DNA of 64,000 nt from a virus, in the IMG/VR virus record IMGVR_UViG_3300042377_000625, positions 28,344 to 92,343 of that record; one strand, written 5' to 3'. This document shows, one piece after another, positions 33,540 through 64,000 of the stretch; the first letter of the stretch is position 1, and the number at the start of each line of letters is the position of its first letter. Made by a program: the position numbers and the translations under genes. The notes beneath the pieces are model-generated. The model worked only from the letters and a program-made list of their open reading frames with translations, was not told the origin of the DNA and made no database searches.

Positions 33540-36500
33540 ATGCCGAATTATCAAAGACTGACCGACAGAACCCAAGCTCCGATAGTATCTCCAGATGACA
33601 TTGTACACATTGTCATTACGGGTGATACATCACAAAACCCCGCAGGTTCATCATATAAAGCAAGTATCCAACAAATTGCGGATGCTCTATCCCTTGCTGG
33701 TACTTCAGGTACTGCAGGAACAAGTGGTGTTAATGGTTCATCAGGAACAAGTGGTGTTAATGGTTCGTCAGGTTCAAGTGGTCAAAATGGTACTTCAGGT
33801 TTAAGTGGTTCTTCAGGAAGTAGTGGAACATCAGGAAGTAGCGGTTCTTCGGGTAGTTCAGGAACTAAAGGAACATCAGGTTCAAGTGGTACTTCAGGAA
33901 TATCAGGTTCTAGTGGAACAAGTGGTTCATCAGGAAGTTCAGGTTCAAGTGGTTCATCAGGAAGTTCAGGTTCAAGTGGTTCTTCTGGTAGTAGTGGTTC
34001 TTCAGGAACTAACGGTTCTTCAGGAACTAACGGTTCTTCAGGAACTAACGGTTCATCGGGTTCATCGGGTTCTTCGGGTGAAAGTGGTTCATCAGGAACA
34101 TCGGGTACGTCAGGTAGTAGTGGTTCTTCTGGTAGTAGTGGTTCTTCAGGAACTAACGGCTCTTCAGGGACTAACGGCTCTTCAGGGACTAACGGCTCTT
34201 CAGGGACTAGTGGAAGTTCGGGTACTGATGGTTCATCAGGTACTTCAGGTACTGATGGTAGTTCAGGAACAAGTGGGACTGACGGTTCTTCAGGAACGTC
34301 AGGTTCTTCAGGAACAAGTGGGATTGACGGTTCTTCAGGAACTTCAGGAACTGACGGTAGTTCGGGAACTTCAGGTGCTGATGGTTCTTCGGGAACTTCA
34401 GGGTCTAGTGGTATAAGTGGTGTTAATGGTTCTTCAGGGACTTCAGGTATTAGTGGGACCGATGGTAGTTCAGGTACGTCAGGAAATAGTGGGTCTTCAG
34501 GAACATCAGGAACAGATGGTTCTTCAGGAACATCGGGCTCAAGCGGAACAAGTGGTACCAATGGTAGTTCAGGTACAAGTGGAACTGACGGTAGTTCAGG
34601 TACAAGTGGAACTGACGGTAGTTCAGGAACTAGTGGTATTGACGGTTCTTCAGGAACAAGCGGTACTGACGGTAGTTCAGGAACAGATGGTTCATCAGGA
34701 ACTAGTGGAACAGATGGTTCTTCAGGAACATCGGGCTCAAGTGGTACAGATGGTAGTTCAGGTACAAGCGGAACTGACGGTAGTTCAGGAACTTCAGGAA
34801 CAGATGGTTCATCAGGAACTAGCGGAAGTTCAGGAACAGATGGTTCATCAGGAACAAGTGGAACTGACGGAAGTTCAGGCACTTCGGGTTCAAGCGGATT
34901 AAGTGGTGTTGATGGTTCTTCAGGAACAAGTGGAACTGACGGTAGTTCAGGAACAGATGGTTCATCAGGAACTAGCGGAACTGACGGTAGTTCAGGAACA
35001 AGCGGAAGTTCAGGAACAGATGGTTCTTCAGGAACAAGTGGAACGGATGGTTCTTCAGGGACTAGCGGTTCTTCAGGAACAAGTGGGAGTTCAGGTACTT
35101 CAGGAACTGATGGTTCTTCAGGAACAAGTGGAACTGACGGTAGTTCAGGAACAAGTGGTACCGATGGTTCAAGTGGTACCTCGGGTTCAAGTGGAATTAG
35201 TGGTGTTAACGGAACTAATGGTACGTCAGGTTCTTCAGGAACAAGCGGAACAGATGGTTCATCAGGGACAAGCGGTAGTTCAGGAACAGATGGTTCATCA
35301 GGAACTAGTGGTACTAACGGTTCTTCAGGAACTAGCGGAACAGATGGTTCATCAGGAACAAGTGGAACTAGCGGAACAGATGGGTCATCGGGAACAAGTG
35401 GAACATCAGGTTCAAGTGGATTAAGTGGTGTTGACGGTTCTTCAGGAACAAGCGGAACAGACGGTTCTTCAGGAACTAGCGGTACTGATGGTTCTTCAGG
35501 AACAAGCGGAACTGATGGTTCTTCAGGTACTAGTGGAACAAGCGGAACAGATGGTTCTTCAGGAACAAGTGGAACATCAGGTTCAAGTGGATTAAGTGGT
35601 GTTGATGGTTCTTCAGGTACTTCAGGAACAGATGGTTCTTCAGGAACAAGTGGAAGTTCAGGTACTTCAGGAACAGATGGTTCATCAGGAACTAGCGGTA
35701 CTGACGGTAGTTCAGGTACTTCAGGAACATCGGGGTCAAGTGGTTCTTCAGGAACTAGCGGTACTGATGGTTCTTCAGGAACAAGCGGAACTGATGGTTC
35801 TTCAGGTACAAGTGGAAGTTCGGGTACTGATGGTTCTTCAGGTACAAGTGGAAGTTCTGGTACAAGCGGTTCTTCAGGTTCAGGCGGTTCCTCAGGAACA
35901 AGTGGAACAGATGGTAGTTCAGGTACTAGTGGAACAGATGGTTCTTCAGGTACTTCAGGGACAGATGGTTCATCAGGTACTTCAGGAACAGATGGGTCAT
36001 CGGGAACAAGTGGAAGTTCGGGTACTGACGGTAGTTCAGGAACTAGCGGAACTGATGGTTCTTCAGGAACATCGGGGTCAAGCGGATTAAGCGGTGTTGA
36101 TGGTTCTTCAGGTACAAGCGGAACTGACGGTTCTTCAGGGACTAGTGGGAGTTCAGGAACTGATGGTTCTTCAGGAACTAGTGGTACATCAGGTACAGAC
36201 GGCTCTTCAGGAACTAGCGGTACATCAGGTACAAGTGGGACAGATGGTAGTTCAGGAACCTCGGGTTCAAGTGGATTAAGTGGTGTTGATGGTTCTTCAG
36301 GAACTAGCGGAACTGACGGTAGTTCAGGAACAGATGGTTCTTCAGGAACTAGTGGAAGTTCAGGAACTAGTGGAAGTTCAGGTACAGATGGTTCTTCAGG
36401 AACAAGTGGAACGGATGGTTCTTCAGGGACTAGCGGTTCTTCAGGAAGTTCAGGAACAAGTGGTACTGACGGTTCTTCAGGAACTAGCGGGACAGATGGC

Positions 36501-39500
36501 TCGTCAGGTTCAAGTGGTATTAGTGGTGTGAATGGTTCATCAGGAACAAGCGGTACTAACGGTTCATCGGGGACCAGTGGTTCTTCAGGAACAGATGGTT
36601 CATCAGGAACAAGTGGTTCGTCAGGAACAAGTGGGACTGATGGTAGTTCAGGAACAAGCGGTACGGATGGTAGTTCAGGAACAAGCGGAACTGACGGTTC
36701 TTCAGGCACTAGCGGAACAGATGGTTCATCAGGTACTTCAGGTACTAGTGGAACAGATGGTTCATCAGGAACTAGCGGAACAGATGGTTCATCAGGAACA
36801 GATGGTTCTTCAGGAACTTCGGGAACAGATGGCTCTTCAGGTACTAGTGGAACTTCAGGAACAGATGGTAGTTCAGGAACAAGTGGAACTAATGGGAGTA
36901 GTGGAACATCAGGTTCAAGTGGATTAAGTGGTGTTGACGGTTCTTCAGGAACAAGCGGAACAGATGGTTCTTCAGGAACAAGTGGAAGTTCAGGTACTTC
37001 AGGAACAGATGGTTCTTCAGGAACAAGCGGAACAGATGGTTCTTCAGGGACTAGTGGGAGTTCAGGAACTGATGGTTCTTCAGGAACTAGTGGTACATCA
37101 GGTACAGACGGCTCTTCAGGAACTAGCGGTACATCAGGTACAGACGGCTCTTCAGGAACTAGCGGAAGTTCGGGAACTGATGGTTCTTCAGGAAGTAGTG
37201 GTACTTCAGGTACAGACGGCTCTTCAGGAACATCAGGTACTAGTGGAACCGATGGTTCTTCAGGAACAAGTGGAACCGATGGTTCTTCAGGAACAAGTGG
37301 AACTTCAGGAACAGACGGTTCTTCAGGAACATCAGGAACAGACGGTTCTTCAGGAACTTCAGGTACAGACGGCTCTTCAGGAACATCAGGTACTAGTGGA
37401 ACCGATGGTTCATCAGGAACAAGCGGAACTGATGGTTCTTCAGGAACATCGGGTTCAAGCGGATTAAGTGGTGTTGATGGTTCTTCAGGAACTTCAGGAA
37501 TAGATGGTTCTTCGGGAACTAGTGGTACTTCAGGTACTGATGGTTCATCGGGAACAAGTGGAAGTTCAGGTTCATCAGGAACTAGCGGTAGTTCAGGTAC
37601 TTCAGGAACATCAGGTTCAAGTGGATTAAGTGGTGTTGATGGTAGTTCAGGTACAAGTGGAACTGATGGTTCTTCAGGAACTAGCGGAACTGATGGTTCT
37701 TCAGGAACTAGCGGAACAAGTGGTACAGATGGTTCATCAGGAACTAGTGGTACTTCAGGTACGGATGGCTCATCAGGAACATCAGGTACTAGTGGAACAG
37801 ATGGTTCATCAGGAACATCAGGTACTAGTGGAACAGATGGTTCATCAGGAACAGATGGGTCAAGTGGAACTTCAGGAACAAGCGGAACTGACGGTAGTTC
37901 AGGTACAAGTGGAACAGATGGTTCATCAGGAACGGATGGTAGTAGCGGAACTTCAGGCTCAAGTGGTATTAGTGGTGTAAATGGTTCATCAGGAACAAGT
38001 GGTACATCTGGTTCAAGCGGAACAAGTGGCTCATCAGGAACTTCAGGGTCAAGTGGGACATCAGGTTCTAGTGGAACAAGTGGGTCTTCAGGTACAAGCG
38101 GGTCATCAGGTTCAAGTGGTTCGTCAGGAACAAGTGGTAGCTCGGGTACATCAGGCACTAGCGGTAGTTCAGGTTCATCGGGGACATCAGGTTCAAGTGG
38201 TTCGTCAGGAACTAGCGGAACAGATGGTTCTTCAGGAACATCGGGTTCTTCAGGAACATCAGGTTCAAGTGGTACTTCAGGTTCGTCAGGAACTAGTGGT
38301 TCATCAGGAACTAGCGGAACATCGGGGTCAAGCGGTTCTTCAGGGTCTAGCGGAACAAGTGGAACATCAGGAAGTTCAGGTTCATCAGGAAGTTCAGGGT
38401 CTAGTGGTTCGTCAGGTACTGCGGGTACAAGCGGAACGTCAGGAAGTTCAGGTTCATCAGGAACTAGCGGTAGTTCAGGTACAAGTGGTTCATCGGGAAC
38501 AAGTGGAACGTCAGGTTCTTCGGGTACTTCAGGAACTAATGGTTCATCAGGAACATCGGGTTCAAGTGGTTCATCGGGAACAAGTGGAACGTCAGGTTCT
38601 TCGGGTACTTCAGGAACAAGCGGTTCATCAGGAACAAGTGGTTCATCAGGAACAAGTGGTTCATCAGGAACAAGTGGTTCATCAGGAACTAACGGAAGTT
38701 CAGGAACTAGCGGAACTTCAGGTTCAAGTGGTACTTCAGGAACTAGTGGAAGTTCAGGGTCATCAGGTTCAAGTGGTTCTTCAGGAACTAGCGGAAGTTC
38801 AGGTACGTCAGGGACAAGTGGTTCTTCAGGAACATCAGGTACTAGCGGAACATCAGGTACAAGTGGTTCATCAGGAACTAGCGGAAGTTCAGGTACGTCA
38901 GGGACAAGTGGTTCTTCAGGAACTAGCGGAACTTCAGGTTCAAGTGGTTCATCAGGAACTAACGGGTCATCAGGAACTTCAGGTTCTGCGGGTACAAGTG
39001 GGACTAGCGGAACATCAGGTACTAGCGGAAGTTCAGGTACATCAGGAAGTTCAGGTTCTAGTGGTAGTTCAGGTTCATCAGGGTCTAGTGGGACAAGCGG
39101 TTCATCGGGGTCAAGCGGTTCTTCAGGTACTGCAGGTACAAGTGGAAGTAGTGGAACATCAGGGTCAAGCGGTTCTTCAGGTACAAGTGGAACATCAGGT
39201 TCTAGTGGTAGTTCAGGTTCTAGTGGAAGTAGTGGAACATCGGGAACGTCAGGTAGTTCAGGTTCAAGTGGTACATCGGGTAGTTCAGGAACGTCGGGGA
39301 CAAGTGGTTCTTCAGGAACTAGTGGAACTTCAGGTTCTTCAGGAACTAGCGGTTCTTCAGGTACGAGTGGCTCATCAGGTTCTTCAGGAACTAGCGGAAC
39401 TTCAGGTACGAGTGGCTCATCAGGAACATCAGGTTCATCAGGTAGTTCGGGCTCAAGTGGAACAAGTGGTTCGTCAGGAACAAGTGGTAGCTCGGGTACA

Positions 39501-41192
39501 TCAGGCACTAGCGGTAGTTCAGGTTCAAGTGGCTCATCAGGTTCATCAGGGTCTAGTGGGACAAGTGGTTCTTCAGGAACTGCAGGTACATCAGGTTCAT
39601 CAGGAACTTCAGGTACGTCTGGCTCAAGTGGTAGTAGCGGTTCATCAGGTTCAAGTGGTTCATCAGGAACTTCAGGTAGTTCAGGTTCAAGCGGTAGTAG
39701 CGGCTCTTCAGGAACTGCGGGTACTAGTGGAACGTCAGGAAGTTCAGGTTCGTCGGGGTCAAGTGGTTCTTCAGGAACTAGCGGAACTTCAGGTTCAAGT
39801 GGTAGTTCGGGGTCTTCAGGTTCTAGTGGTAGTTCGGGGTCTTCAGGAACATCAGGAACAAGCGGTTCTTCAGGAACTGCAGGTACATCAGGCACAAGCG
39901 GAAGTAGTGGAACATCGGGTAGTTCAGGAACAAGCGGTTCATCGGGGTCAAGTGGTTCTTCAGGAAGTAGCGGTTCTTCAGGAACTGCGGGTACAAGTGG
40001 AAGTAGTGGAACATCGGGGTCAAGCGGTTCTTCGGGTTCATCAGGTTCTAGTGGAAGTAGTGGAACTTCGGGTTCTTCGGGTAGTTCAGGAACAAGTGGT
40101 TCATCAGGAACTGCGGGTACAAGCGGAACATCAGGTAGTTCAGGTTCATCAGGAACTTCAGGGAGTAGTGGAACATCGGGTTCATCAGGAACCGCGGGTA
40201 CAAGCGGAAGTAGTGGAACATCGGGAACATCAGGTTCTAGTGGTAGTTCGGGTTCTTCAGGAACTGCGGGTACAAGTGGAACATCAGGTTCAAGTGGTTC
40301 CTCAGGTAGTTCAGGGTCTAGTGGTACAAGTGGAACGTCAGGTTCTTCAGGAACAAGCGGGTCTTCAGGTTCTTCAGGAACATCGGGTTCAAGTGGAACT
40401 GCAGGTACATCAGGAAGTAGTGGAACATCAGGAACAAGTGGTTCTTCAGGAACATCGGGTACGTCAGGTAGTTCAGGAACATCGGGTACGTCAGGTAGTT
40501 CAGGAACATCGGGTACGAGCGGAACTTCAGGTACGAGTGGCTCATCAGGAACATCGGGTAGTTCGGGCTCAAGCGGAACATCAGGTAGTTCTGGTTCATC
40601 AGGAACAAGCGGTTCTTCAGGAACATCGGGTACAAGTGGTTCTTCGGGAACTACGGGTACGAGCGGAACAAGTGGTTTGCAAGGAACTAGTGGGACATCA
40701 GGGACAAGTGGGACATCAGGTTCTTCAGGTACAAGTGGTTTATCTCCTGTCGTATCAGGTAATGATAATGAAGTATTAACTTCAGATGGTGCGGGTGGTA
40801 TAACATCAGAACCTAATTTAACCTTTGATGGTACTACTTTAGGAATAACAGGTGACACTATTGAACAAGGTAATCAGTCATTACAATCATGTAGAGAAAC
40901 AGGTGTTACAACAACAACATTAATTTGTCGTTTTCCATTCGCATCAGGTTCAAGTGCAACATTTGATTATTACGTATACGATTCTGGAACAAACGCGATG
41001 AGAAGTGGTATTATTATGACAGTGTGGGACGGAACTAATACGGCATTTACTGATAGTTCAACACCTGATTTAAACGCTTCAACGGTGGCGGTTAAATTCT
41101 ACACAGTAATTATAGGTTCAAATCTTGAGTTGTACGCAGCAATTGGAGGCGGAACTTGGGATATAAGTGTAGGAACAAGGATTGTCTTCTAA
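33540..41192 (+). CDS. Giant Gly-X-Y (Ser/Thr/Asp) repeat fibre protein 1, 2550 aa
   Basis: Short N-terminal anchor; about 2350 aa with Gly at every third residue; C-terminal fibre-like domain (NEVLTSDG...EPNLTFDG); late motif at 33516. Confidence 0.85.
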   Translation: MPNYQRLTDRTQAPIVSPDDIVHIVITGDTSQNPAGSSYKASIQQIADALSLAGTSGTAGTSGVNGSSGTSGVNGSSGSSGQNGTSGLSGSSGSSGTSGSSGSSGSSGTKGTSGSSGTSGISGSSGTSGSSGSSGSSGSSGSSGSSGSSGSSGSSGTNGSSGTNGSSGTNGSSGSSGSSGESGSSGTSGTSGSSGSSGSSGSSGTNGSSGTNGSSGTNGSSGTSGSSGTDGSSGTSGTDGSSGTSGTDGSSGTSGSSGTSGIDGSSGTSGTDGSSGTSGADGSSGTSGSSGISGVNGSSGTSGISGTDGSSGTSGNSGSSGTSGTDGSSGTSGSSGTSGTNGSSGTSGTDGSSGTSGTDGSSGTSGIDGSSGTSGTDGSSGTDGSSGTSGTDGSSGTSGSSGTDGSSGTSGTDGSSGTSGTDGSSGTSGSSGTDGSSGTSGTDGSSGTSGSSGLSGVDGSSGTSGTDGSSGTDGSSGTSGTDGSSGTSGSSGTDGSSGTSGTDGSSGTSGSSGTSGSSGTSGTDGSSGTSGTDGSSGTSGTDGSSGTSGSSGISGVNGTNGTSGSSGTSGTDGSSGTSGSSGTDGSSGTSGTNGSSGTSGTDGSSGTSGTSGTDGSSGTSGTSGSSGLSGVDGSSGTSGTDGSSGTSGTDGSSGTSGTDGSSGTSGTSGTDGSSGTSGTSGSSGLSGVDGSSGTSGTDGSSGTSGSSGTSGTDGSSGTSGTDGSSGTSGTSGSSGSSGTSGTDGSSGTSGTDGSSGTSGSSGTDGSSGTSGSSGTSGSSGSGGSSGTSGTDGSSGTSGTDGSSGTSGTDGSSGTSGTDGSSGTSGSSGTDGSSGTSGTDGSSGTSGSSGLSGVDGSSGTSGTDGSSGTSGSSGTDGSSGTSGTSGTDGSSGTSGTSGTSGTDGSSGTSGSSGLSGVDGSSGTSGTDGSSGTDGSSGTSGSSGTSGSSGTDGSSGTSGTDGSSGTSGSSGSSGTSGTDGSSGTSGTDGSSGSSGISGVNGSSGTSGTNGSSGTSGSSGTDGSSGTSGSSGTSGTDGSSGTSGTDGSSGTSGTDGSSGTSGTDGSSGTSGTSGTDGSSGTSGTDGSSGTDGSSGTSGTDGSSGTSGTSGTDGSSGTSGTNGSSGTSGSSGLSGVDGSSGTSGTDGSSGTSGSSGTSGTDGSSGTSGTDGSSGTSGSSGTDGSSGTSGTSGTDGSSGTSGTSGTDGSSGTSGSSGTDGSSGSSGTSGTDGSSGTSGTSGTDGSSGTSGTDGSSGTSGTSGTDGSSGTSGTDGSSGTSGTDGSSGTSGTSGTDGSSGTSGTDGSSGTSGSSGLSGVDGSSGTSGIDGSSGTSGTSGTDGSSGTSGSSGSSGTSGSSGTSGTSGSSGLSGVDGSSGTSGTDGSSGTSGTDGSSGTSGTSGTDGSSGTSGTSGTDGSSGTSGTSGTDGSSGTSGTSGTDGSSGTDGSSGTSGTSGTDGSSGTSGTDGSSGTDGSSGTSGSSGISGVNGSSGTSGTSGSSGTSGSSGTSGSSGTSGSSGTSGSSGTSGSSGSSGSSGTSGSSGTSGTSGSSGSSGTSGSSGSSGTSGTDGSSGTSGSSGTSGSSGTSGSSGTSGSSGTSGTSGSSGSSGSSGTSGTSGSSGSSGSSGSSGSSGTAGTSGTSGSSGSSGTSGSSGTSGSSGTSGTSGSSGTSGTNGSSGTSGSSGSSGTSGTSGSSGTSGTSGSSGTSGSSGTSGSSGTSGSSGTNGSSGTSGTSGSSGTSGTSGSSGSSGSSGSSGTSGSSGTSGTSGSSGTSGTSGTSGTSGSSGTSGSSGTSGTSGSSGTSGTSGSSGSSGTNGSSGTSGSAGTSGTSGTSGTSGSSGTSGSSGSSGSSGSSGSSGTSGSSGSSGSSGTAGTSGSSGTSGSSGSSGTSGTSGSSGSSGSSGSSGTSGTSGSSGSSGTSGSSGTSGTSGSSGTSGTSGSSGTSGSSGTSGSSGSSGTSGTSGTSGSSGTSGSSGSSGSSGTSGSSGTSGSSGTSGTSGSSGSSGSSGSSGSSGTSGSSGTAGTSGSSGTSGTSGSSGSSGSSGSSGSSGTSGSSGSSGSSGSSGTAGTSGTSGSSGSSGSSGSSGTSGTSGSSGSSGSSGSSGSSGSSGTSGTSGSSGTAGTSGTSGSSGTSGSSGTSGSSGSSGSSGSSGSSGTAGTSGSSGTSGSSGSSGSSGSSGSSGTSGSSGSSGTSGSSGTAGTSGTSGSSGSSGTSGSSGTSGSSGTAGTSGSSGTSGTSGSSGSSGSSGTAGTSGTSGSSGSSGSSGSSGTSGTSGSSGTSGSSGSSGTSGSSGTAGTSGSSGTSGTSGSSGTSGTSGSSGTSGTSGSSGTSGTSGTSGTSGSSGTSGSSGSSGTSGSSGSSGTSGSSGTSGTSGSSGTTGTSGTSGLQGTSGTSGTSGTSGSSGTSGLSPVVSGNDNEVLTSDGAGGITSEPNLTFDGTTLGITGDTIEQGNQSLQSCRETGVTTTTLICRFPFASGSSATFDYYVYDSGTNAMRSGIIMTVWDGTNTAFTDSSTPDLNASTVAVKFYTVIIGSNLELYAAIGGGTWDISVGTRIVF
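33699..40745 (+). repeat. 9-bp-period degenerate coding repeat (GGN-WSN-WSN)
   Basis: GTS/GSS/GTD/GTA triplets with synonymous variation. Confidence 0.95.
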
Positions 41193-50699: not shown

Positions 50700-50728
50700 A
50701 AAAAAGGGAGTCGTTTGACTCCCTTTTT
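50700..50728. terminator. Bidirectional terminator between fibre 2 and the glycosylation operon
   Basis: AAAAAGGGAGTC-GTTT-GACTCCCTTTTT. Confidence 0.85.
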
Positions 50729-53201: not shown

Positions 53202-53202
53202 A

Positions 53203-54192: not shown

Positions 54193-54193
54193 T

Positions 54194-54856: not shown

Positions 54857-55834
54857 TTAATTAAATTCAATTAATCCTTTTTCTTTTATTTGTTCTAAAC
54901 TATCCTCATTTAATACTAATGTTTTCACATATTCTATTGTATCATTTTCGTACACCTCAATTATTAATTTATCGTCTCTTAAAGATAGTGGTATATAAAA
55001 CCAATGTGTAGGATAAACAATTTTATCTGTAATGACTTTATTATTCATTTTAACAACGACTCGATATTCATATGAATTTCTGACACCACTGTGACAATAT
55101 AATATTGGTGTTGATGGGTCTTTAACGTTATGTAATACCTCAATCATAAAATTCTCAACCCTAAATAAATTAATATCACTTTCATTAAAATACTCACTTG
55201 AGTGTTCGTTGATTATTAAAAACTCATGCTCATAATGTTGTAATTTTTGGAAAAACGCCAACTCTAATGTTAACGGCATTAAGTGTTCGTACCACTCATT
55301 TTCTGTGACAGGTAATTTTAAAATTTCATTAAAGTAGGAAGGTGTAATCCCGAATAGTTGTGTCTCATAAACATAAGACCCACTATCTCTATACCCCTCA
55401 GGTTTAAAGAAAATACATTTCTTTCTTTCCTCAACCATAGTATCAACCAATTGATTTAATTTTGTAACATCATTTTCCGAGAATAAATTATCATTCTCAA
55501 TAAAATAAACAAAATCGTATTTTTTTATATCGGCAAATTTAAATGCGTTAAACATATTTTGACAAATCGGTAACGAATGTCTTGAGTTATTAACCCTTAA
55601 GAAAAAAGAGTCGGTTTTAAACCAATAATACGGTGATTTATCTAATGGTGTTAAAGTTTGGTTTTTATCGTAAATATAATACTCAACCATTGATTGTAAT
55701 TCAATTGATACAGGGTAATGACTAACTAACATAAAATCAAAACCACTATTTTTTAATGAGTTTATTTCATTAATTAGAACTTGTTCTTTTTTTGGTGTAT
55801 TCGGGTATGCTCCGATAACTATTAATTTTTTCAT
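54857..55834 (-). CDS. Putative glycosyltransferase-like protein (unclassified repeated domain)
   Basis: IGAYPNT...MLVSHYPVS...YYIYD...FIENDN. Confidence 0.55.
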   Translation of the reverse strand: MKKLIVIGAYPNTPKKEQVLINEINSLKNSGFDFMLVSHYPVSIELQSMVEYYIYDKNQTLTPLDKSPYYWFKTDSFFLRVNNSRHSLPICQNMFNAFKFADIKKYDFVYFIENDNLFSENDVTKLNQLVDTMVEERKKCIFFKPEGYRDSGSYVYETQLFGITPSYFNEILKLPVTENEWYEHLMPLTLELAFFQKLQHYEHEFLIINEHSSEYFNESDINLFRVENFMIEVLHNVKDPSTPILYCHSGVRNSYEYRVVVKMNNKVITDKIVYPTHWFYIPLSLRDDKLIIEVYENDTIEYVKTLVLNEDSLEQIKEKGLIEFN

Positions 55835-58521
55835 TACTTAATAAATGTTTTAAATTCCTTATCGATTAATGACACTCCATCAGCTTGAGTTGTAATTCTG
55901 TTTTTTAGAATACCCATATTTAACCCATGTTCGATAAAAATAAGGTTGAAATATGAGTCAGCACAATCCCACTTATGATTACGTAATTGTTCGTATAAGA
56001 ATTCTCTAGTTTTTCTTGGGAACATAATACATTGTAACCCAATAATTTTATCAGTAATAAACAACAAGTCTTGGTTCGGGATTTCTTTAATCACATTTGA
56101 TTGATGCCAAGCGAAGTCTAATGTTTTAGTGTCCCCAAATGAAAAATATTGTATGTCCGATTCGATAACGGTATCACACACTTGTTTAACTTTATCAATG
56201 AATTCCTCAATAGGGACCTCAATTAAACAGTCTCCCTCACAAACAATTAAGAAATCCAAATCTTTATCGAATTCAGATATAATACCATTTTTAAATGATT
56301 CAAAACATCCGTAATGTGCTGGTGTTAGTGCAGTACCTAGTCGGTTTGTTGTCTCTTCATCAAAAAGTTCCATAGACACACATTGTGGTCTAACACAATT
56401 ATGTGATGGAGGTATAGATTTGTATAGTTCATTTGTATGTAAAACATATTCAATACCGTATTTTGATACTTGTTGTAACGACTCTCTTGATAAGATTTCT
56501 CTCTCATCGTTATTTGTTGTTTGTAAATGAACTAATTTAATTTTAGGTAATCGTTTATACTTAAACCATCCATTATTTTTGTAACTAATTATTGTTTCAT
56601 TATTTAATATGTAAGATTCTGATTTATATTGAACTCCACCCTCAAAAAAGGTTAACTTAATCTCTATTGGAACTCCATCGTAGTCAATTTCTTTTAAGAA
56701 TTCTCGGGTTTGTAGAATATTAAATGATTTAGAATAAATGGTTTCGTTATTTTTATTAATCTCAACACTAACTGTTCTGTCATCAATATTATATGTGTAG
56801 AAATAAAACACCCATTTATTCTCGTTATTAATAATTGGTAATATAGAATAGTATTCTGAATTAGATGAGACTCCTTTACCTGAATTAATTAAGAATGTAT
56901 GACTATCATTTGTAATGACATTAACTGTTGGTTCGTGAATTAATTTCTTATAAAAGAAATCCTCTAAGAAGTTTTGACAATTATTTATTCTACATTCTGA
57001 TTTGTAAATTTCTTTAGTTATTATATGTGAAAATTTTTCTAAAAAGAAATCAGTTTTAAACGTCATTGCGGTAGTCTCAATACCAACATTAAACGCCGTA
57101 GGTAAAGTACATAAGAATGCGTCTTTTTCATCCAACAATTTAAATGATTGATTAACATATTCAATATCATCATGATGTAATATAACATCGTAGGTTATGT
57201 AAAATACTTTATTAAAATTAAAATCTTTTGCGGATTTAAACCCATTAATTAAATTAGTTAAAACAGGTAATGATTGGTTAGTATCTTTTAATCCGTTAAT
57301 GTTAATCTCAACATCAAACTCTGATTTATAATTATAAAACTTAGTATAATAAGAATGTTCTGTTGTTGGGTTATTTGAATCAAAAATATAATAGTCGACC
57401 ATTTTTTGAATATCGTTCGACACTGGATAATGAGAAACCAACATTACTTTTCGACCTAATTTTTTAACAGACTTAATACATTCGATAGTTAATTTTTCTC
57501 GTGATTTAGTATTCGGATAAGTACCAACAATAACTAACTCATTATTATCATATTTTTCTTTATAAGGATTTAATAATGATAGTAATTTTGATGTATCATG
57601 ATTAATATCTCCTGTTAAAAATGTTATATTTTCGTACTTATCGTATTTTCCACAATAAACATCCAAGTTATACATCATCATTGGGATTCTATACTCCAAA
57701 GCCTCTTTTAAGGCGATTGGGTTTAATTCTTTATTGTTTCTGTCACCTTTTGAAGGAAACAAGAATAAGTCCGACGCTTCAATAAATGATTGTACGTCTT
57801 TTCTTTCTCCCCAAACAACGCAGTTATCAGGTTTATTTTTAATCAACGGACCCCAATATGATTGGAAGTTTTCGGCCTGATTACCCAAAAAATGAAATTT
57901 TATTTTATAATCCTTTAATTTATGTGCGATGTCAAAAATATAGGATTGATTTTTTCTTGCCGTGAACAATCCAACATTTAAAACATGTTTATATGTTGGG
58001 TCTAAATCTAATAATTCTTGGTTTTGTTTTTTATTTTTTTCTTTATAGTCTACAGGGTATTCAACAATGTCATACGGAATATCATATATAGAATATCTAA
58101 ATGCGTTATACGCACTTACGAATATAAATTTATCGGGGAACCATCTTTTATGTGAAACAGAAAAACTAGAATCATGTGTGGTTTCAAATATTGTGTATTC
58201 CCTATCTTCCCTATATAATTCTTTTGTGACAGAATCATCCATGAAAAATTCAGGAAATTCTTCCATACTAACAACATCAGGTTTAAACTCATTAACAATT
58301 CTAATTAACTCGTTTTTATCTTCCCCTAAAGAATGGAAATTATCACCAAGTAATTCTTGTATTTGATTTCTTTGAACGACAAACGTCCAAGCAACAAATG
58401 CGTACTCAACACATTTGATTTCATATTCATTGTTAATTAATTGTATTTTATTTAATGTGACTTGAGGCGCTCCTCCAGTACTTAAATGAGGAGAAACAAC
58501 TAATATTTTTTTCTTTTTCAT
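55834..58521 (-). CDS. Multidomain glycosyltransferase: GT4 + unclassified domain + GT25-like domain
   Basis: HLSTGGAP...RKNQ...ELNPIALKEAL; VGTYPNT...VSHYPV; HYGCFESF...VCEGDC. Confidence 0.75.
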   Translation of the reverse strand: MKKKKILVVSPHLSTGGAPQVTLNKIQLINNEYEIKCVEYAFVAWTFVVQRNQIQELLGDNFHSLGEDKNELIRIVNEFKPDVVSMEEFPEFFMDDSVTKELYREDREYTIFETTHDSSFSVSHKRWFPDKFIFVSAYNAFRYSIYDIPYDIVEYPVDYKEKNKKQNQELLDLDPTYKHVLNVGLFTARKNQSYIFDIAHKLKDYKIKFHFLGNQAENFQSYWGPLIKNKPDNCVVWGERKDVQSFIEASDLFLFPSKGDRNNKELNPIALKEALEYRIPMMMYNLDVYCGKYDKYENITFLTGDINHDTSKLLSLLNPYKEKYDNNELVIVGTYPNTKSREKLTIECIKSVKKLGRKVMLVSHYPVSNDIQKMVDYYIFDSNNPTTEHSYYTKFYNYKSEFDVEININGLKDTNQSLPVLTNLINGFKSAKDFNFNKVFYITYDVILHHDDIEYVNQSFKLLDEKDAFLCTLPTAFNVGIETTAMTFKTDFFLEKFSHIITKEIYKSECRINNCQNFLEDFFYKKLIHEPTVNVITNDSHTFLINSGKGVSSNSEYYSILPIINNENKWVFYFYTYNIDDRTVSVEINKNNETIYSKSFNILQTREFLKEIDYDGVPIEIKLTFFEGGVQYKSESYILNNETIISYKNNGWFKYKRLPKIKLVHLQTTNNDEREILSRESLQQVSKYGIEYVLHTNELYKSIPPSHNCVRPQCVSMELFDEETTNRLGTALTPAHYGCFESFKNGIISEFDKDLDFLIVCEGDCLIEVPIEEFIDKVKQVCDTVIESDIQYFSFGDTKTLDFAWHQSNVIKEIPNQDLLFITDKIIGLQCIMFPRKTREFLYEQLRNHKWDCADSYFNLIFIEHGLNMGILKNRITTQADGVSLIDKEFKTFIK

Positions 58522-59474
58522 TATTTTATTAAATTAATATTATATGCGTAAATTAATCCGATATCGTTAGACCCTAAAGTATCCTCAATTATAAAGTTGT
58601 TTGATTTTAGTATATCTAAAACTTCATCGTAAATTTCTTTTGAGTGGTATTCCATTGCAATTTTACCAATATTATTTTGTAAATATTCTTTATCAATTGT
58701 TCGGAATAAATCCAACTCACCACCTTCACAATCAACTTTTAAAAAATCAATTCTGTCGATATCGTAGTCAGAAATTAATTGGTTAATAGTGATAGTCTCA
58801 ACAATCTCTTCACCAATCACTGTTGATGGGTGAAACCCACTTTCGTTTTTTTGTGAAAAATTATTACCATTAACTTCGGTTATCATAAATTTCTCAAACC
58901 CATTCTCATTACTAACCGCCTTATTAATACAAGTTACTCCGTGTTCGGAAAGATTCTTTTTCATACTTTTAAATGTAGCCTTAAGAGGTTCTACCGCATA
59001 AACGTTAGATGGGTTAAACATTTGTGAGTATAATGAGAATACTCCGTAATTCGCCCCAATATCAACAACCGTATCATTGATGCTAAGTCTAACAAAATCC
59101 CTCTCATATACTTTATCGTAAAAAATCTCAGTAACAATTGGAAATAAATCATCCCCCAAGTGAGATAATTTAACTTGTTTTGAGTTAATTACTAAAAATC
59201 TATTTTGACCAAATAGTTTTAATTCCTGAGAATATTGTAGGTCACCATACATAATGGATAAGGTTATGTTTCTAAGTCTTTTTGCGTTAGATTCACCAGT
59301 CGATATCCACCAATTGGTTCCTTTTCGTAACCCCATGTTTGATTTATGTACGGTTAATCCCGTATTGTTATCAATAATTGAGACCTCGTATATTTCTTTT
59401 ATGTCATCACCATTAAAGTCAAAATGGATTATACCATTCTCTTCAATATTAGTTACTGTAAAAATATTATTCAT
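58521..59474 (-). CDS. FkbM-family methyltransferase with an N-terminal beta domain
   Basis: VVDIGANYGVFS, AVEP, FLKVDCEGGE, MEYH. Confidence 0.9.
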   Translation of the reverse strand: MNNIFTVTNIEENGIIHFDFNGDDIKEIYEVSIIDNNTGLTVHKSNMGLRKGTNWWISTGESNAKRLRNITLSIMYGDLQYSQELKLFGQNRFLVINSKQVKLSHLGDDLFPIVTEIFYDKVYERDFVRLSINDTVVDIGANYGVFSLYSQMFNPSNVYAVEPLKATFKSMKKNLSEHGVTCINKAVSNENGFEKFMITEVNGNNFSQKNESGFHPSTVIGEEIVETITINQLISDYDIDRIDFLKVDCEGGELDLFRTIDKEYLQNNIGKIAMEYHSKEIYDEVLDILKSNNFIIEDTLGSNDIGLIYAYNINLIK

Positions 59475-59475
59475 A

Positions 59476-60501
59476 TTATATGTGTATAAATTCGTTATGG
59501 ATTATTTGTTTGTTTAATGTCACCTCAACTCTGAATTTTTTGAACTCATTAATTTCGTGAAATATAATTGATGACGGCCACACAAAATAAGTTGTTTTGG
59601 GTAGAATGTTTAAAAATGTTTCATAAATTTGGTCCCCTGTCTGTCCATCAAAAAATCTAAAATTTAGTGATTGTGGTTTAGTTATATTTTTAATATAAAA
59701 TTTATTCTCATTTCTAATAAAATCAATTGTAAATTCATTTGAGGAGATATCAATTGATTCGTGTAAAATTGGTTTTTCCAAACCACGACTTTCGTAAAAG
59801 TTTTCTGAATATTTTAAAGAGTTGGTTTTATCGTCCCAAATAAATGAACAACCACCGACAAATCTTTGTTGTTGGTAACTGATTTTTTCTTTAGACCTAC
59901 TATCCTCATTTAACCAAGAATAATGTTTAACCCATGCAATATCTCTTGGTATCGAAATTGTTGGTTTAGATTCAAAAGTTTCACCATCGTTATATAAGAT
60001 ATGGTTGTCAAAATAAAAATGAGTTATCCCTCCATTCCTATTGGTTCTAAAAATTCTTGGTGGACAGAAACCATCCACCCATAACTGTTTTGTAAATGTG
60101 TAATTTTTAAGGTTAACCGAATACCAATCGTATTGAGGTGTTTCCTGAATAAAATTTAAAATATTTCTAATTTCGTCTTCGGTGTAAAACTCATCAGAAT
60201 CCACAATCCAAACTAAATCACAATTATTCTTTAAGACATGTAAAACATTATTCTTACTCTCATTTTCACCAAACAATGATTTCATTCCTGTGGTGATTAA
60301 AAAGTCTAATTCATAATTTATTAATTTAGTTAGAGTCTCTTTATTCTTTGGTTTAAATCCAAAATTAATATATTCCTGGTACATACCACTATTACAACCA
60401 ATAGTAATGTCTAATTCATTTTTTAAGTTTATCCAAGGACGTAAACACTCATCAATATATTCTTCGGAGTTGTATGCGGAAAGTAATATTCCTATTTTCA
60501 T
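59476..60501 (-). CDS. GT2-like glycosyltransferase
   Basis: LLSAYNSEEYI, WIVDSDEFY, KHYSW. Confidence 0.75.
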   Translation of the reverse strand: MKIGILLSAYNSEEYIDECLRPWINLKNELDITIGCNSGMYQEYINFGFKPKNKETLTKLINYELDFLITTGMKSLFGENESKNNVLHVLKNNCDLVWIVDSDEFYTEDEIRNILNFIQETPQYDWYSVNLKNYTFTKQLWVDGFCPPRIFRTNRNGGITHFYFDNHILYNDGETFESKPTISIPRDIAWVKHYSWLNEDSRSKEKISYQQQRFVGGCSFIWDDKTNSLKYSENFYESRGLEKPILHESIDISSNEFTIDFIRNENKFYIKNITKPQSLNFRFFDGQTGDQIYETFLNILPKTTYFVWPSSIIFHEINEFKKFRVEVTLNKQIIHNEFIHI

Positions 60502-61439
60502 ATAATTTCTAAAATTTTATTAAACACTTGCTCAACTGAGGGATGGCACTCAAATGTTGGTTTATTTTCTAAACAATTAATTAAAGGTGGTACCCCTTGG
60601 ATATCCCCCCATTCTTTAACTCCGTATTTTATATCTGAACCACAAAACAGACTACAACCACCACCAACATAATGGTATTTATATTCTTGTGAATTATTTC
60701 GATATGGGGCTCTAAATTCGTAATTGATAGAACTTCCTAATTGAATGATTTCTGAATCAGTTGTTCCTGCTAAATGAAGTAATCCTGAATCCATTGTGAC
60801 AAAACACAATGATTTATTAATTAAATGCCACGATTGACTTAATGTGGTTTTATTCATTAAATTAAGGCCATTTTTAATCTCAAAATTAAAAATTGGTTTT
60901 TTAACATTAAAAAATCCAACCTCACTTGAGTCTTTACCAACTGAAATTACACTAATATTATGGTCGTTTAATTTTTTACTTAATTCCATCCATTTAACCG
61001 CATCCCAAGTTCTGCTTGGCCAATTTTGGACGGGGTGTATTAGTACATATTTCTCAGGTAATCCTTTAATTGGTTCATACTCATCAGGAATATAATCAAT
61101 ATTCATTTCATCTTTGGTTAACATAAAACCAAGTTTAATTGCGTGATATTGTCTAATGTCAATACGGTTATGTTTAAACTCAACTCCTCGGTTATTTTTT
61201 TGTCCATTCTCATAAAATGAATTATGAGTTATAAAATTAGATTTAATGAAATCTAAATTAACCGAATTCGAGTGGTAAACCTTTTCAACCAAAGGATGAT
61301 TTTTAAATAATTCAGGGAAATTAGTTACAACGGTAACTTTTGAGTCATATGATTGATGTAGTTTTCTAAGTACGGGGGTTGAGCAAAGGGTATCCCCGAT
61401 TGCCTTTGCTTCCGATAAATCAAGACATATTTTTTTCAT
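60498..61439 (-). CDS. GT9 (heptosyltransferase-like) glycosyltransferase
   Basis: IGDTLCSTPVLRKL, SRTW..W, FVTMDSGLLHLA; C-terminal CSLFC...C...FECHP. Confidence 0.85.
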   Translation of the reverse strand: MKKICLDLSEAKAIGDTLCSTPVLRKLHQSYDSKVTVVTNFPELFKNHPLVEKVYHSNSVNLDFIKSNFITHNSFYENGQKNNRGVEFKHNRIDIRQYHAIKLGFMLTKDEMNIDYIPDEYEPIKGLPEKYVLIHPVQNWPSRTWDAVKWMELSKKLNDHNISVISVGKDSSEVGFFNVKKPIFNFEIKNGLNLMNKTTLSQSWHLINKSLCFVTMDSGLLHLAGTTDSEIIQLGSSINYEFRAPYRNNSQEYKYHYVGGGCSLFCGSDIKYGVKEWGDIQGVPPLINCLENKPTFECHPSVEQVFNKILEII

Positions 61440-61531
61440 AAGTAAAATATAAAATAAAAACTCAAAAATTATACCCCAAGTTTAGTTAATTATCTATTTA
61501 TGGTAAACCGTTCAGGTGTATATTTATAGTA

Positions 61532-62125
61532 ATGCAATCAATTGAAATACTTTCGTTTACTGGTGTTAGTCCGTATACCATTACAATTTGTGATGTTACG
61601 TTAACTTATTGCTATGTAGTTGCGACAGGTGTTTCTTCAGCTCCAATTACCGTTACAGTACCAACATTATTACAACCTGCAGCCCAAATAATATTAAAAG
61701 TAACCGATAGTACGTCGTGTGATTATTTCCAAATAATATCTTGTATTACTCCCACACCAACACCGACACCAACACCAACACCGACACCATCACCAACACA
61801 TGGTGATTGTGATTGTATTGGATTTAACAATTTATATGGTAATCTAAATTACCCAATTAGTTTAACACAGTGTGATGGTACTATATTAAACACTGTGGTA
61901 TATTCAGGAACTTCGGTTTATTATTGTGGTAGTCAACCAGTTGCGGGGTCTGATGTTACAATTACTATTGGTTTACCTTGTATTAATAACACATGTCCTA
62001 CACCTACACCACCTGGACCAACGCCAACTCCGACACCTACACCAACAACAGGGAGTAACTACCTATCACAAGAAGATTTATTCCTAATCTTACAAGAAAA
62101 TGGGGGTAGAATAATCATTACATAA
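61532..62125 (+). CDS. Putative fibre adaptor protein, Cys/Pro-Thr-rich (paralog of 33190)
   Basis: N-domain shared with 33190; C-terminal YLSQEDLFLILQENG; late motif at 61521. Confidence 0.6.
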   Translation: MQSIEILSFTGVSPYTITICDVTLTYCYVVATGVSSAPITVTVPTLLQPAAQIILKVTDSTSCDYFQIISCITPTPTPTPTPTPTPSPTHGDCDCIGFNNLYGNLNYPISLTQCDGTILNTVVYSGTSVYYCGSQPVAGSDVTITIGLPCINNTCPTPTPPGPTPTPTPTPTTGSNYLSQEDLFLILQENGGRIIIT

Positions 62126-62165
62126 TAAACACAATAATCTAAAGTATAATATTTATAACTAAACT

Positions 62166-63329
62166 ATGGCAGATTTACCAATATCCTCACTCCCCTTAGC
62201 ATCAACAGGTTATTCAGACTCGTTGTTGGCAATCGTTAATTATAACCCTATAAGTTCTGGAAGGACTGAAGCAATATATTTTTCATCATTTACGGGTTCT
62301 AATATTAGTATTTCGGCAAATACGGGGTTAGGTGTTGATGGTGGTGTATTATACACAACTTATAATACCTTATTAGACCCTACGATTTCTATGGCAAGTG
62401 CCGTTGGTGGATTATCAGGAGGAACCACCGTTGCTCAATTATCGGGTAAAACTTTTGTTTCGTTGTTTGACGAGTTACTATTCCCGACAGAACCCCCAAC
62501 ATATACAATACCAACAATATCAATAGGAGGTGTATCAAATTCAACTGTTGAGGTTGGGTCAAATCTCACCTCAAATATAACGGTTTCTGCGGTTAAAAAT
62601 GATGCAGGAATTTATAATCAACTTAGGATTTTTAGAGATGGGACACCGATTTTAACTGACACAACATTATCAAGTTCATCGGCAACAGACATACCAGCAC
62701 AATTCGGTTATACGGATTTAAACAATCCAAATTCGGGATTCACAATAAGTCCATCCCCATATACCGATAGTTATACTATACCAGCACCAACAGGTGGTAA
62801 TCAGTCTACGACAACAACTTATAATGCCGATGGTAATTATCTTGCGGGAGTTGTTAAAAAAAATAATAAAGGTGTTAATGATACTCGAACCCCGTTAGTT
62901 AGAAGTACTAACGCACCTCAAGACTCGTCAAATAATTTTGCAACTTCGGTGGTGACGTATACAGGTATCTATCCATTTTTCTATGGGGTATCAAGTACAT
63001 TACCAAACGCAAGTAGTATCTCAAGTGCAATACAAGCAAACTCGGCAAATAAAGTTCTATCTTCCGCATCAGGAACTATTAATATCACATTCGCCGCATC
63101 GTCCGAATATCTATGGTTTGCTCACTTTTCAAATTATACTGACAAAACTGTTTGGTTTGTTGACTCATTGAATAGTGGTGGTATTGGTGGAAGTGGTAAT
63201 TTATTTGGGTCACCGATAATTCAATCGGTTACAAGTCCTAGCAGCTACTGGAGTAGCATAAATTTTGATATTTATATTTCTAATTATCAAACAACTACAA
63301 CGGGCGTAATGCAACTAAGAAATTCTTAA
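62166..63329 (+). CDS. Putative tail fibre/virion structural protein
   Basis: MADLPISSLP fibre-type N-terminus; Ser/Thr-rich beta domains; late motif at 62150. Confidence 0.6.
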   Translation: MADLPISSLPLASTGYSDSLLAIVNYNPISSGRTEAIYFSSFTGSNISISANTGLGVDGGVLYTTYNTLLDPTISMASAVGGLSGGTTVAQLSGKTFVSLFDELLFPTEPPTYTIPTISIGGVSNSTVEVGSNLTSNITVSAVKNDAGIYNQLRIFRDGTPILTDTTLSSSSATDIPAQFGYTDLNNPNSGFTISPSPYTDSYTIPAPTGGNQSTTTTYNADGNYLAGVVKKNNKGVNDTRTPLVRSTNAPQDSSNNFATSVVTYTGIYPFFYGVSSTLPNASSISSAIQANSANKVLSSASGTINITFAASSEYLWFAHFSNYTDKTVWFVDSLNSGGIGGSGNLFGSPIIQSVTSPSSYWSSINFDIYISNYQTTTTGVMQLRNS

Positions 63330-63333: not shown

Positions 63334-64000
63334 ATGGGTATTATAATAAATGATAATTTAACAACTTTTTCACCAAAACCATTAGATAGTAGGTTTGGGC
63401 CATATTCTAGTACAACATTTGCTAACACCAGTGTTATTACCGCAAATAGATATATTGGATTAACTGTGGGTATTTTAACGGGAGTAACTGATATTGTTGA
63501 ATATTGGTATCTTAGTGGTATTACCGACTTAGATTTAGTCTTAAAAACCTCAGGTGGTGGAACTGGTACTTCAGGAACTTCAGGAACCTCAGGGTCAAGT
63601 GGTGAAAGCGGAACTTCAGGAGAGAATGGAACTTCAGGCGAGAATGGAACTTCAGGCGAGAATGGAACTTCAGGCGAGAATGGAACTTCAGGTGAGAATG
63701 GAACTTCGGGTGAGAATGGAACTTCGGGAGAGAATGGAACTTCGGGTGAAAGTGGAACTTCGGGAGAGAATGGAACTTCGGGTGAGAGCGGTACTAGCGG
63801 ATTAAGTGGTACTTCAGGTGAAAGCGGAACTTCAGGTGAAAGCGGAACTTCGGGAGAGAATGGAACATCAGGTGAGAATGGAACTTCAGGTGAGAATGGA
63901 ACTTCAGGTGAGAGCGGTACTTCAGGTGAGAGCGGTACTTCAGGTGAGAGCGGTACTAGCGGATTAAGTGGAACTTCAGGTGAAAGAGGAACTAGCGGAT
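63334..64000 (+). CDS. Third Gly-X-Y repeat fibre protein (GEN/GES type), 3'-truncated by the window end
   Basis: Manual translation from ATG 63334: MGIIINDNLTTFSPKPLDSRFGPY...GTSGENGTSGES...; no stop codon, so absent from the ORF track. Confidence 0.85.
   Translation, partial: MGIIINDNLTTFSPKPLDSRFGPYSSTTFANTSVITANRYIGLTVGILTGVTDIVEYWYLSGITDLDLVLKTSGGGTGTSGTSGTSGSSGESGTSGENGTSGENGTSGENGTSGENGTSGENGTSGENGTSGENGTSGESGTSGENGTSGESGTSGLSGTSGESGTSGESGTSGENGTSGENGTSGENGTSGESGTSGESGTSGESGTSGLSGTSGERGTSG

Follow-up and report, generated by a model that had tools for sequence, protein, structure and literature searches.

A probable phage-encoded glycosylation system for giant, proline-free collagen-like fibres in a large lake phage

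The final 64 kb of the 92,343-base IMG/VR record IMGVR_UViG_3300042377_000625 (64,000 nucleotides, referred to here as the window; CheckV completeness of the record, 31%) come from a large, uncultured lake phage and contain giant genes for collagen-like fibres on both sides of an operon coding for glycosyltransferases (GTs) and methyltransferases. We consider it probable, at roughly 0.65, that this phage glycosylates its own collagen-like fibres through an operon enzyme similar to TibC, one of the bacterial autotransporter heptosyltransferases (BAHTs) of Escherichia coli. The participation of all nine operon genes is proposed with lower confidence, and heptose as the sugar with little. The comparisons described below show which genes are present, which families they belong to, that the catalytic residues are conserved, that enzyme and repeats co-occur and how the distal domain of fibre A folds; the relation of enzyme and substrate, the order of the steps, their timing, the triple helix, the location on the virion and any part in triple-helix stabilisation, shielding or adhesion are what we infer from them. 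The fibre genes and the operon (open reading frames, ORFs; lengths in amino acids, aa) are arranged as follows.

33540..41192, plus strand: fibre A, 2550 aa, with a 53-aa N-terminal domain, the Gly-X-Y (GXY) repeat and a 148-aa C-terminal beta-sandwich (Pfam Collagen, 36.7 bits)
41343..50696, plus strand: fibre B, 3117 aa, with a 106-aa beta-sandwich-like N-terminus and a 212-aa Cys-rich C-terminal domain
50699..50730, both strands: bidirectional intrinsic terminator common to fibre B and the operon, with a 14-bp stem and T runs on both strands
50728..61439, minus strand: operon of nine ORFs, with gaps of at most 2 nucleotides or overlapping, convergent with fibre B; its genes are the next nine lines
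60498..61439, minus strand: operon gene 1, a GT9-family glycosyltransferase, 313 aa (PF01075, 55 bits; in 22 of 80 related loci)
59476..60501, minus strand: 341-aa protein with a weak GT2 match (PF00535, 20.7 bits, under the cut-off)
58521..59474, minus strand: FkbM-type methyltransferase, 317 aa (PF05050, 70 bits; cut-off 22.7)
55834..58521, minus strand: 895-aa protein with a GT4 domain (PF00534, 40.7 bits)
54857..55834, minus strand: 325-aa protein of a phage-only family (present in 16 of 80 loci)
54194..54856, minus strand: FkbM-type methyltransferase, 220 aa (PF05050, 38.9 bits; cut-off 22.7; phrog_8156)
53203..54192, minus strand: 329-aa protein (present in 6 of 80 loci)
51099..53201, minus strand: GT4-TibC/Aah-type fusion, 700 aa, with GT4 at aa ~110-310 and the TibC-like domain at aa 370-698
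50728..51099, minus strand: final operon gene, a DUF6165 small protein (Pfam, 33.4 bits; a homologue adjoins the TibC-like gene in 26 of 80 loci)
63334..63999, plus strand: fibre C, partial and open at the contig end, with a 74-aa N-terminal domain followed by G-T-S-G-E-N/S triplets

A first-pass annotation of the window, made from the sequence alone, had pointed to three late-type genes of Pro-free Ser/Thr triplets offering thousands of hydroxyls, and they were found where it had placed them, with fibres A and B summing to 3171 Ser plus Thr. Fibre A contains 783 GXY triplets in a single run without a register break (aa 54-2402), in which X is mostly Thr (403) or Ser (342) and Y is mostly Ser (643) or Asp (103, 13%). 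Its N-terminal domain also precedes GXY runs in nine other loci. The 852 triplets of fibre B are split by two globular inserts of ~120 aa into runs of 684, 132 and 36, with Y being mostly Ser, plus Ala and Arg, and Arg confined to this position (18 times). Fibre B also has a weak Phage_depo_C match (E 0.003); the AlphaFold model of its 212-aa C-terminal domain reached a predicted local distance difference test score (pLDDT) of 40 and was not used. The gene order A then B was found again in three loci (L086, L092 and L118). In the 49 triplets present of fibre C, Glu is confined to X. The repeats of the fibres contain no Pro at all, and X is Thr or Ser plus a few Val, Leu or Ile. All 116 matches to Pfam Collagen (PF01391) in the record are located inside fibres A, B and C, and only the weakest of them falls under the 27.2-bit cut-off. 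Five different Ser codons are used in the repeats, indicating that the periodicity is preserved in the protein rather than being a simple tandem repeat of DNA. As for the residues that stabilise collagen, i.e., Pro/hydroxyproline or charge pairs in X and Y, the repeats do not have them. A collagen helix rises 0.286 nm per residue, and at this value the calculated span is ~670 nm for fibre A and ~590 nm for the longest segment of fibre B, the true repeat lengths hinging on short-read assembly; comparably large GXY ORFs are found in independent assemblies (920 triplets in one run in L003 and 1104 in total in L098). Long ORFs antisense to the repeats (e.g., 33782-40858, minus strand) were rejected as repeat by-products, since the start context, flanking domains and Collagen matches all belong to the plus frame.

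The identification of the 51099-53201 product as an Aah/TibC-type enzyme, also made in the first-pass annotation, held at the level of protein families and of individual residues. TIGR04414, the NCBIfam equivalog for Aah/TibC, gives 285.3 bits over aa 370-698 (cut-off, 200), and a phmmer comparison with TibC (4rap/4rb4) gives an E value of 8e-51; the protein also matches Pfam GT1 and GT9. For the residue comparison, the TibC structure paper (PMC4358343) was read against a pairwise alignment and 80 phage homologues. In TibC, Asp-110 is the catalytic base, Thr-226 and Lys-230 serve the beta-phosphate and Trp-305 the heptose O4, and Cys-339, 342, 358 and 370 form a 1Fe-0S iron finger (PMC4358343). 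The equivalents in the phage enzyme are D436 in an LGD motif (TibC D110, at least 97% conserved in the 80 homologues), T548 (TibC T226; Thr or Ser in 80/80), K552 (TibC K230; Lys in 80/80) and W617 (TibC W305; Trp in 79/80), and C652, C655, C671 and C683 align exactly with the iron-finger cysteines (at least 97% conserved). The position of TibC Pro-300, connected with stereoselectivity, is Ser or Gly in the phage enzymes, as in AAH. The acceptor of TibC is Ser and not Thr, e.g., the Ser within N-S-G-G, and BAHTs are soluble cytoplasmic enzymes that use nucleotide sugars (PMC4358343). The predicted fold, chemistry and serine acceptor of the TibC-like enzyme are, by these correspondences, well supported.

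Genomic co-occurrence of enzyme and repeats, a check set in advance by the first-pass annotation, came out positive in both directions. The forward set consisted of 80 IMG/VR loci with the enzyme (34-89% identity), and a GXY run was counted if it was Ser/Thr-rich, Pro-free and at least 15 triplets long. Such runs were found 3' of the enzyme in 47/75 loci and 5' in 4/74; among loci with at least 3 kb available on the 3' side the figure was 40/62. Over ~603 kb per side, 6749 triplets were 3' of the enzyme versus 129 on the 5' side. The enzyme and GXY genes nearly always converge, with a median of 2.9 kb between them. Many of the “negative” loci stop within 1 to 3 kb, and these are probably assemblies that broke in the repeats. 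In the reverse set, 79 loci fetched solely by a 200-aa repeat stretch, the enzyme was downstream in 18 of the 39 loci offering 3 kb or more there, and upstream in 3/67. A TIGR04414 match over the cut-off was present in all 24 large records searched, including the 11 picked by the repeat; in several of these 11 the enzyme lay outside the fetched flank. The enzyme was found in 4 of 50,697 deposited phage records and was absent from all 14 control genomes. The triplet consensus G-T-S is shared across loci (X is Thr in 66% and Ser in 21%; Y is Ser in 73%), unlike the globular domains of the fibres, which differ between loci. Absence is concordant as well. Two complete relatives (G025 and G027, the records behind L238 and L284; 296 and 321 kb, both 100% complete), with a head protein ~79% identical, gave no TibC-like, Collagen, FkbM or GT1/GT4 match, and all four are present in a 93%-complete genome from this lineage. 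The fibre-plus-glycosylation block is, therefore, an accessory module within the lineage.

To place the phage enzymes we scanned one genome per prokaryotic species, which yielded 55 loci with the enzyme. The enzyme-domain tree has two clades, one of bacterial BAHTs and one viral. The bacterial clade, mostly from high-G+C Proteobacteria, had GXY in 0/43 loci; AIDA repeats appeared in two of the five large neighbouring ORFs checked there and were seen beside bacterial-clade homologues only. In the viral clade, GXY was present in 72/107 loci, with 13 being too short to judge. The weight of the association is in its persistence through changes of context. The pairing holds in convergent and in same-strand layouts and in carrier genomes from 108 to 373 kb, and the TibC-like domain occurs free, fused to GT4, or within single ORFs coding for GT4-TibC-FkbM (G005:C1:52709-54871, 977 aa, behind L085, and G004:C1:11713-13914, 966 aa, behind L083). 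These three-domain fusions appear to tie the GT4, TibC-like and FkbM activities into a single pathway. The 895-aa GT4 protein has a tblastn relative in 69 of the 80 loci with the TibC-like gene and, where the separate GT4 gene was located in other loci, it adjoins the TibC-like gene.

The pair was found outside phages too. A 139-kb contig of a betaproteobacterial metagenome-assembled genome (L164, 9046-11417; also L163) carries genes for a methyltransferase, a TibC-like enzyme (305 bits) and a lipoprotein. The lipoprotein has 99 aa, a lipobox (LVTAC) and a C-terminal stretch of 18 G-T/S-S triplets, and its gene is convergent with the TibC-like gene; the methyltransferase is class I and BioC-like, under the cut-off. 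No phage genes surround the cassette; its neighbours code for a Na+/H+ exchanger, a DEAD-box helicase, TctC and RsgA. Among phages in culture, the cyanophage Mel-JY01 (L295, PP395634.1) has a collagen-like gene of G-T-S/G-S-S/G-T-R triplets at the start of the record (1-3050, plus strand), with one run of 149 triplets, that was deposited as two hypothetical proteins on the minus, i.e., the wrong, strand. About 1.7 kb downstream (4750-8430) there is a 1226-aa GT4...TibC fusion annotated merely as “methyltransferase FkbM.” Our literature search found no paper on Mel-JY01. An uncultured phage of 735 kb, with a genome among the largest known (LR756501.1, L298), has a TibC-like gene (9799-16077, 43% identity) and a 19-triplet G-T/S-S run 5 kb away on the opposite strand. 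In the 636-kb phage LR756504.1 (enzyme at 36% identity), no GXY run was found within 15 kb.

Expression signals differ between the fibres and the operon, as follows.

33515..33523, plus strand: late-promoter-like motif ATATTTATA before fibre A, exact copy
61468..61496, minus strand: sigma-70-like promoter match TAGATA-17-TATAAT ahead of the operon, a consensus match only

The motif ATATTTATA differs from the TATAAATA of T4 in the central two bases. There are 11 exact copies versus 2.5 expected, a number that 0/100 shuffles reached. Nine of the copies sit 4 to ~60 nucleotides 5' of gene starts on the coding strand, the genes behind them being fibres A, B (41281) and C (63268), the two genes between the operon and fibre C (61520 and 62149) and four head-region genes (copies at 3119, 5140, 8267 and 9770, the last two on the minus strand, preceding genes that start at 3146, 5166, 8181 and 9755, respectively). 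When one mismatch was allowed there were 84 copies versus 60 expected, barely above chance, and only exact copies were used. No late-like motif was found in front of the operon. This suggests, from consensus matches only, that the enzymes are expressed first and the fibres late. The 148-aa distal domain of fibre A gave an AlphaFold2 model with a pLDDT of 84, and a Foldseek comparison likens it to the C-terminal domains found in Acinetobacter phage tailspikes (E 4e-4), in cyanophage tail fibres and in viral collagen-repeat proteins, and weakly to that of T4 gp9 (E 0.02). The late-promoter-like motif and this tail-fibre-type C-terminal fold support the virion role that had been suggested for the fibres.

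The system we propose would be a phage-encoded, cytoplasmic protein O-glycosylation system acting on the phage's own fibres. The operon would be read from a host-type promoter, so that the enzymes would be present ahead of the fibres. The TibC-like domain would then move the first sugar from a nucleotide sugar onto Ser of the Gly-Thr/Ser-Ser triplets, the likeliest acceptor being the Y-position Ser ahead of each Gly; TibC modifies a Ser followed by Gly, which fits the near-invariant Ser at Y. The glycan may be lengthened by the GT4 domain of the fusion together with some, if not all, of the other transferases, and the FkbM methyltransferases would O-methylate it. Modification would take place in the cytoplasm, and the fibres would afterwards trimerise and be mounted on the virion as appendages reaching ~0.6-0.7 micrometre. 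BAHTs being cytoplasmic users of nucleotide sugars, such a route suits the cytoplasmic assembly of virions.

Several points weigh against this reading, which rests on comparative genomics throughout. G-T-S triplets rank low in triple-helix propensity in host-guest studies. Of the viral-clade loci that extend 3 kb or more on the 3' side of the enzyme, 22 had no GXY run within 10 kb. On the tree, the association of enzyme and GXY appears to have essentially one origin, which means that the locus counts are not independent events. At the enzyme itself, position 598, corresponding to TibC Arg-286, is Thr, and in the 80 homologues it is Thr in 53, Val in 17 and Arg in 4, although it directly follows an alignment gap and the alignment there is somewhat uncertain. 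The pairwise alignment with TibC has gaps of 6 and 4 residues across TibC 267-280, in the thumb region, and no Phe-Val pair at the thumb tip. In TibC, Arg-286 contacts the adenine N1 of ADP-heptose and is the basis of the ADP-sugar specificity, and the beta-hairpin thumb (Phe-265/Val-266) builds the dodecamer (PMC4358343). Because of the replaced Arg and the 10-residue thumb deletion, donor and quaternary structure may differ from those of TibC, and neither ADP-heptose as the donor nor a dodecamer appears well supported for the phage enzyme. Finally, the genes for the 329-aa protein, the GT2-like protein and the 220-aa FkbM protein seldom accompany the enzyme in other loci, and their products may act on other acceptors. 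The convergent nine-gene operon of glycosyltransferases, with two FkbM methyltransferases and an Aah/TibC-like enzyme, was found as first described (50728-61439), while its reading as one fibre glycosylation set stands in part: comparison upholds the TibC-like gene with its GT4 and FkbM partners, and several of the other genes are rarely conserved alongside. By sequence comparison, GT4 and FkbM are the only activities bound to the TibC-like domain by gene fusion, and the roles of the remaining operon genes we infer from position alone.

The proposal of heptose, with a mass increment of +192 Da, was not supported. The adenine-reading Arg is Thr or Val in the phage clade, neither GmhA-like (SIS_2) nor PfkB-kinase genes were found in the record, and a GmhA-like (SIS_2) gene is present in only 2 of 15 complete phage genomes with the enzyme. 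With the Arg replaced and the heptose-pathway genes mostly absent, heptose was not adopted as the sugar. A 152-aa nucleotidyltransferase scored under the cut-off with both rfaE_dom_II (69.8 bits) and TagD (69.2 bits); it was not assignable as a heptose-1-phosphate adenylyltransferase, as it scores equally on the glycerol-3-phosphate cytidylyltransferase model.

A stronger version of the proposal, in which a distinct TibC-like clade recognises Gly-Thr/Ser-Ser triplets and dense (methylated) O-glycosylation lets a Pro-free collagen fold, is tentative, and we regard it as possible but rather doubtful. It would amount to a second chemical solution to triple-helix stability, in phages and in a few bacteria using the pair on lipoproteins, and to glycan-sheathed virion filaments of up to ~0.7 micrometre that might aid long-range host capture or shielding. 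The T4 long tail fibre measures ~145 nm, far shorter than the proposed filaments.

The fibres might also be glycosylated by this system without being triple helices, as flexible mucin-like brushes in which the period would reflect enzyme recognition and repeat expansion. Repeats without Pro and with few charged residues, made of a poor triple-helix-forming triplet, would suit such brushes, and so would the bacterial partner lipoprotein, with just 18 triplets and no obvious trimerisation domain, and the classical mucin-like poly-Thr and (TP)n tracts of neighbouring late genes. We think this unlikely, given the 783 triplets of fibre A with zero register breaks and the strong position rules that hold across phages (Ile, Val, Leu and Glu almost only in X; Asp, Asn and Arg almost only in Y). 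The varied synonymous codons speak against recent slippage, the Pfam Collagen matches exceed the cut-off, and viral collagen-repeat proteins are among the Foldseek matches of the distal domain.

Even less probable is that the operon targets the lipopolysaccharide (LPS) or capsule of the host, for surface conversion or superinfection exclusion, or other virion proteins such as those with poly-Thr, the adjacency being an inherited module order. The conserved partner is of the protein-specific TibC type, over the equivalog cut-off, and the pairing survives rearrangements, fusions and a move to a bacterial chromosome without a phage module, although the single origin on the enzyme tree and the lack of conservation of most operon genes beside the fibres would agree with mere inheritance of gene order. 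Enzyme and fibres are, besides, lost jointly in close relatives. The LPS core is the classical target of GT9 enzymes, and LPS heptosyltransferase models weakly match the 60498 protein. Phage glycosyltransferases that change the host serotype are well known (reviewed in PMC12619734), but there is no sign of a temperate lifestyle in the window. That the transferases hypermodify the phage DNA, as T4-type glucosyltransferases do, is highly improbable: the phage is T4-like, GT-B enzymes glycosylate T-even DNA, diverse DNA glycans are known (cited in PMC12619734), and a dUTPase/dCTP-deaminase-like gene is nearby, but we saw no hydroxymethylase in the window, the key enzyme is from a family that acts on protein serines and its acceptor-activating Asp is intact, and the link to the GXY genes would be left unexplained.

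Among known systems, the nearest to the proposed one in terms of enzymes are the E. coli BAHT pairs (TibC-TibA and Aah-AIDA-I; PDB 4RAP/4RB4; PMC4358343), whose catalytic domain is homologous to that of the phage enzyme. The catalytic Asp, the Lys, the Trp and the four Fe-binding Cys are kept, the beta-phosphate Thr is kept as Thr/Ser, and in both cases a cytoplasmic enzyme is encoded beside a highly repetitive, Ser-rich protein in which the acceptor Ser precedes Gly. However, the phage partner is a Gly-X-Y collagen-like fibre and not a beta-helical autotransporter passenger with AIDA-type repeats. The phage enzymes form a separate, mainly viral sister clade, with Arg-286 replaced and the thumb shortened, and their domain is often fused to GT4 and sometimes to FkbM as well. 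In terms of the acceptor, there is a resemblance to BclA, the hair-like collagen-repeat protein of the Bacillus exosporium, with GXT repeats, rhamnose-anthrose oligosaccharides and a globular C-terminal domain. In both, hydroxyl residues stand in the triplets; those of BclA are O-glycosylated with methylated or unusual sugars. The BclA repeats are, however, Pro-rich (GPT) and have tens of triplets versus the hundreds found here, and none of the glycosyltransferases acting on BclA is related to TibC. Fibre A also differs in its distal domain, which is tailspike/tail-fibre-like, with best Foldseek matches that are not of the C1q/TNF type.

To our knowledge, glycosylation of a phage's own virion by phage enzymes has been demonstrated so far only in a few mycobacteriophages, and we know of no TibC-type enzyme or collagen-like acceptor in them. 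There, glycosyltransferases encoded by the phage are reported to modify structural proteins of its own virion (Freeman et al. 2023, summarised in PMC12619734), with glycans on the C-termini of capsid and tail-tube subunits, and the hosts are actinobacteria. In Mimivirus, viral collagen-like proteins are glycosylated by the viral enzyme L230, which glucosylates hydroxylysine (PMC4691112). As proposed here for the phage, its long fibres are coated through virus-encoded glycosylation, with sugar-synthesis clusters and methylated sugars, but it is a eukaryotic virus with fibres of 120-140 nm (PMC4691112), and its enzymes are unrelated to those of the phage. The prophages of E. coli O157:H7 code for collagen-like tail-fibre proteins in which Gly-X-Y tracts serve as trimeric fibre segments; these tracts are short and of the typical bacterial collagen-like kind (PMC3368898), and we know of no report of a dedicated glycosyltransferase partner. 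BAHT hyperglycosylation of adhesins, mycobacteriophage virion glycosylation, glycosylated BclA and the Mimivirus fibrils with L230 are, then, already known. Our literature search found no paper joining collagen-like proteins, phage and heptosyltransferase and no description of a TibC-type enzyme dedicated to Pro-free collagen-like phage fibres. What is new is how the enzyme departs from TibC at individual residues, the joint absence from complete close relatives, the lipoprotein cassette in a bacterium, the fusions of three domains and Mel-JY01 as a cultured carrier.

If the proposed fibre glycosylation is correct, it would be a far larger case of virion glycosylation, with thousands of acceptor sites per chain and appendages several times the length of the virion, in a system that is widespread in freshwater and marine jumbo and T4-like phages. 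The BAHT family, characterised on autotransporter adhesins, would gain a new class of substrate and probably a new donor. It would also offer a natural test of glycans replacing proline/hydroxyproline in collagen, of relevance to recombinant collagen materials, and may account for the hairy or filamentous decorations of large phages, with a part in finding the host or evading recognition. The cultured carrier Mel-JY01 makes the question directly testable.

As for the rest of the operon, the 60498 protein was rejected as a confident TibC-type enzyme and is taken as a generic GT9 only; its matches to LPS heptosyltransferase models and to TibC are weak and all far under the cut-offs. The 329-aa protein had no match in Pfam, PHROG or NCBIfam, and the 325-aa protein matched only viral hypothetical clusters in the ESM Atlas, plus a faint Glyco_transf_25 lead. 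A megablast of the operon against deposited phages gave no match.

The phage appears to belong to a lineage of common aquatic jumbo phages, judging from its T4-type major head gene (597-2468, plus strand; phrog_138, E 1e-66). Relatives of the head protein were found in at least 596 IMG/VR stretches, the best 80 being 77-94% identical, and include complete genomes of 296 and 321 kb. The nearest deposited relatives, at 41-46% identity, are an uncultured 484-kb phage, Microcystis phage Mel-JY01 and Flavobacterium “immuto” phages. The head protein has 623 aa, of which only about half is spanned by two separate T4-type head matches; the best PHROG match is at aa 344-600, leaving a long part of the N-terminal half uncovered. 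The G+C content of the backbone is 28-34% and that of the repeat genes 48-50%.

Three further groups of genes in the window deserve mention.

28507..33492, plus strand: upstream genes on the strand of the fibres, coding for a 1001-aa protein, a 165-aa Pro/Thr-rich protein, a LamG-domain protein and a conserved 100-aa protein
61532..63329, plus strand: two late-motif genes between the operon and fibre C, coding for proteins of 197 aa (Thr/Pro-rich; 61532-62125) and 387 aa
14638..25723, minus strand: second sugar island, with the 152-aa nucleotidyltransferase, three GT2 proteins (two GT2-type domains in one of them), a PHROG glycosyltransferase, a methyltransferase and a hexapeptide acyltransferase

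The upstream genes are conserved near GXY genes in 12-18 of 79 loci, and the LamG protein matches Laminin_G_3 and has PHROG virion/baseplate matches. The 1001-aa protein (28507-31512) consists in part of (T5-7 S/N L)n, followed by (Thr-Pro)n at aa 717-800, and the 165-aa protein (31509-32006) is 24% Pro and 21% Thr. Together with the product of 61532-62125, these mucin-like neighbours are plausible further acceptors of O-glycosylation, judging by their composition. The second sugar island could supply an unusual sugar. It is interspersed with PhoH, dUTPase and an exonuclease gene, and a DegT-like (aminotransferase) ORF of 209 aa (20599-21228) matches positions 26-98 of the profile only and may be truncated.

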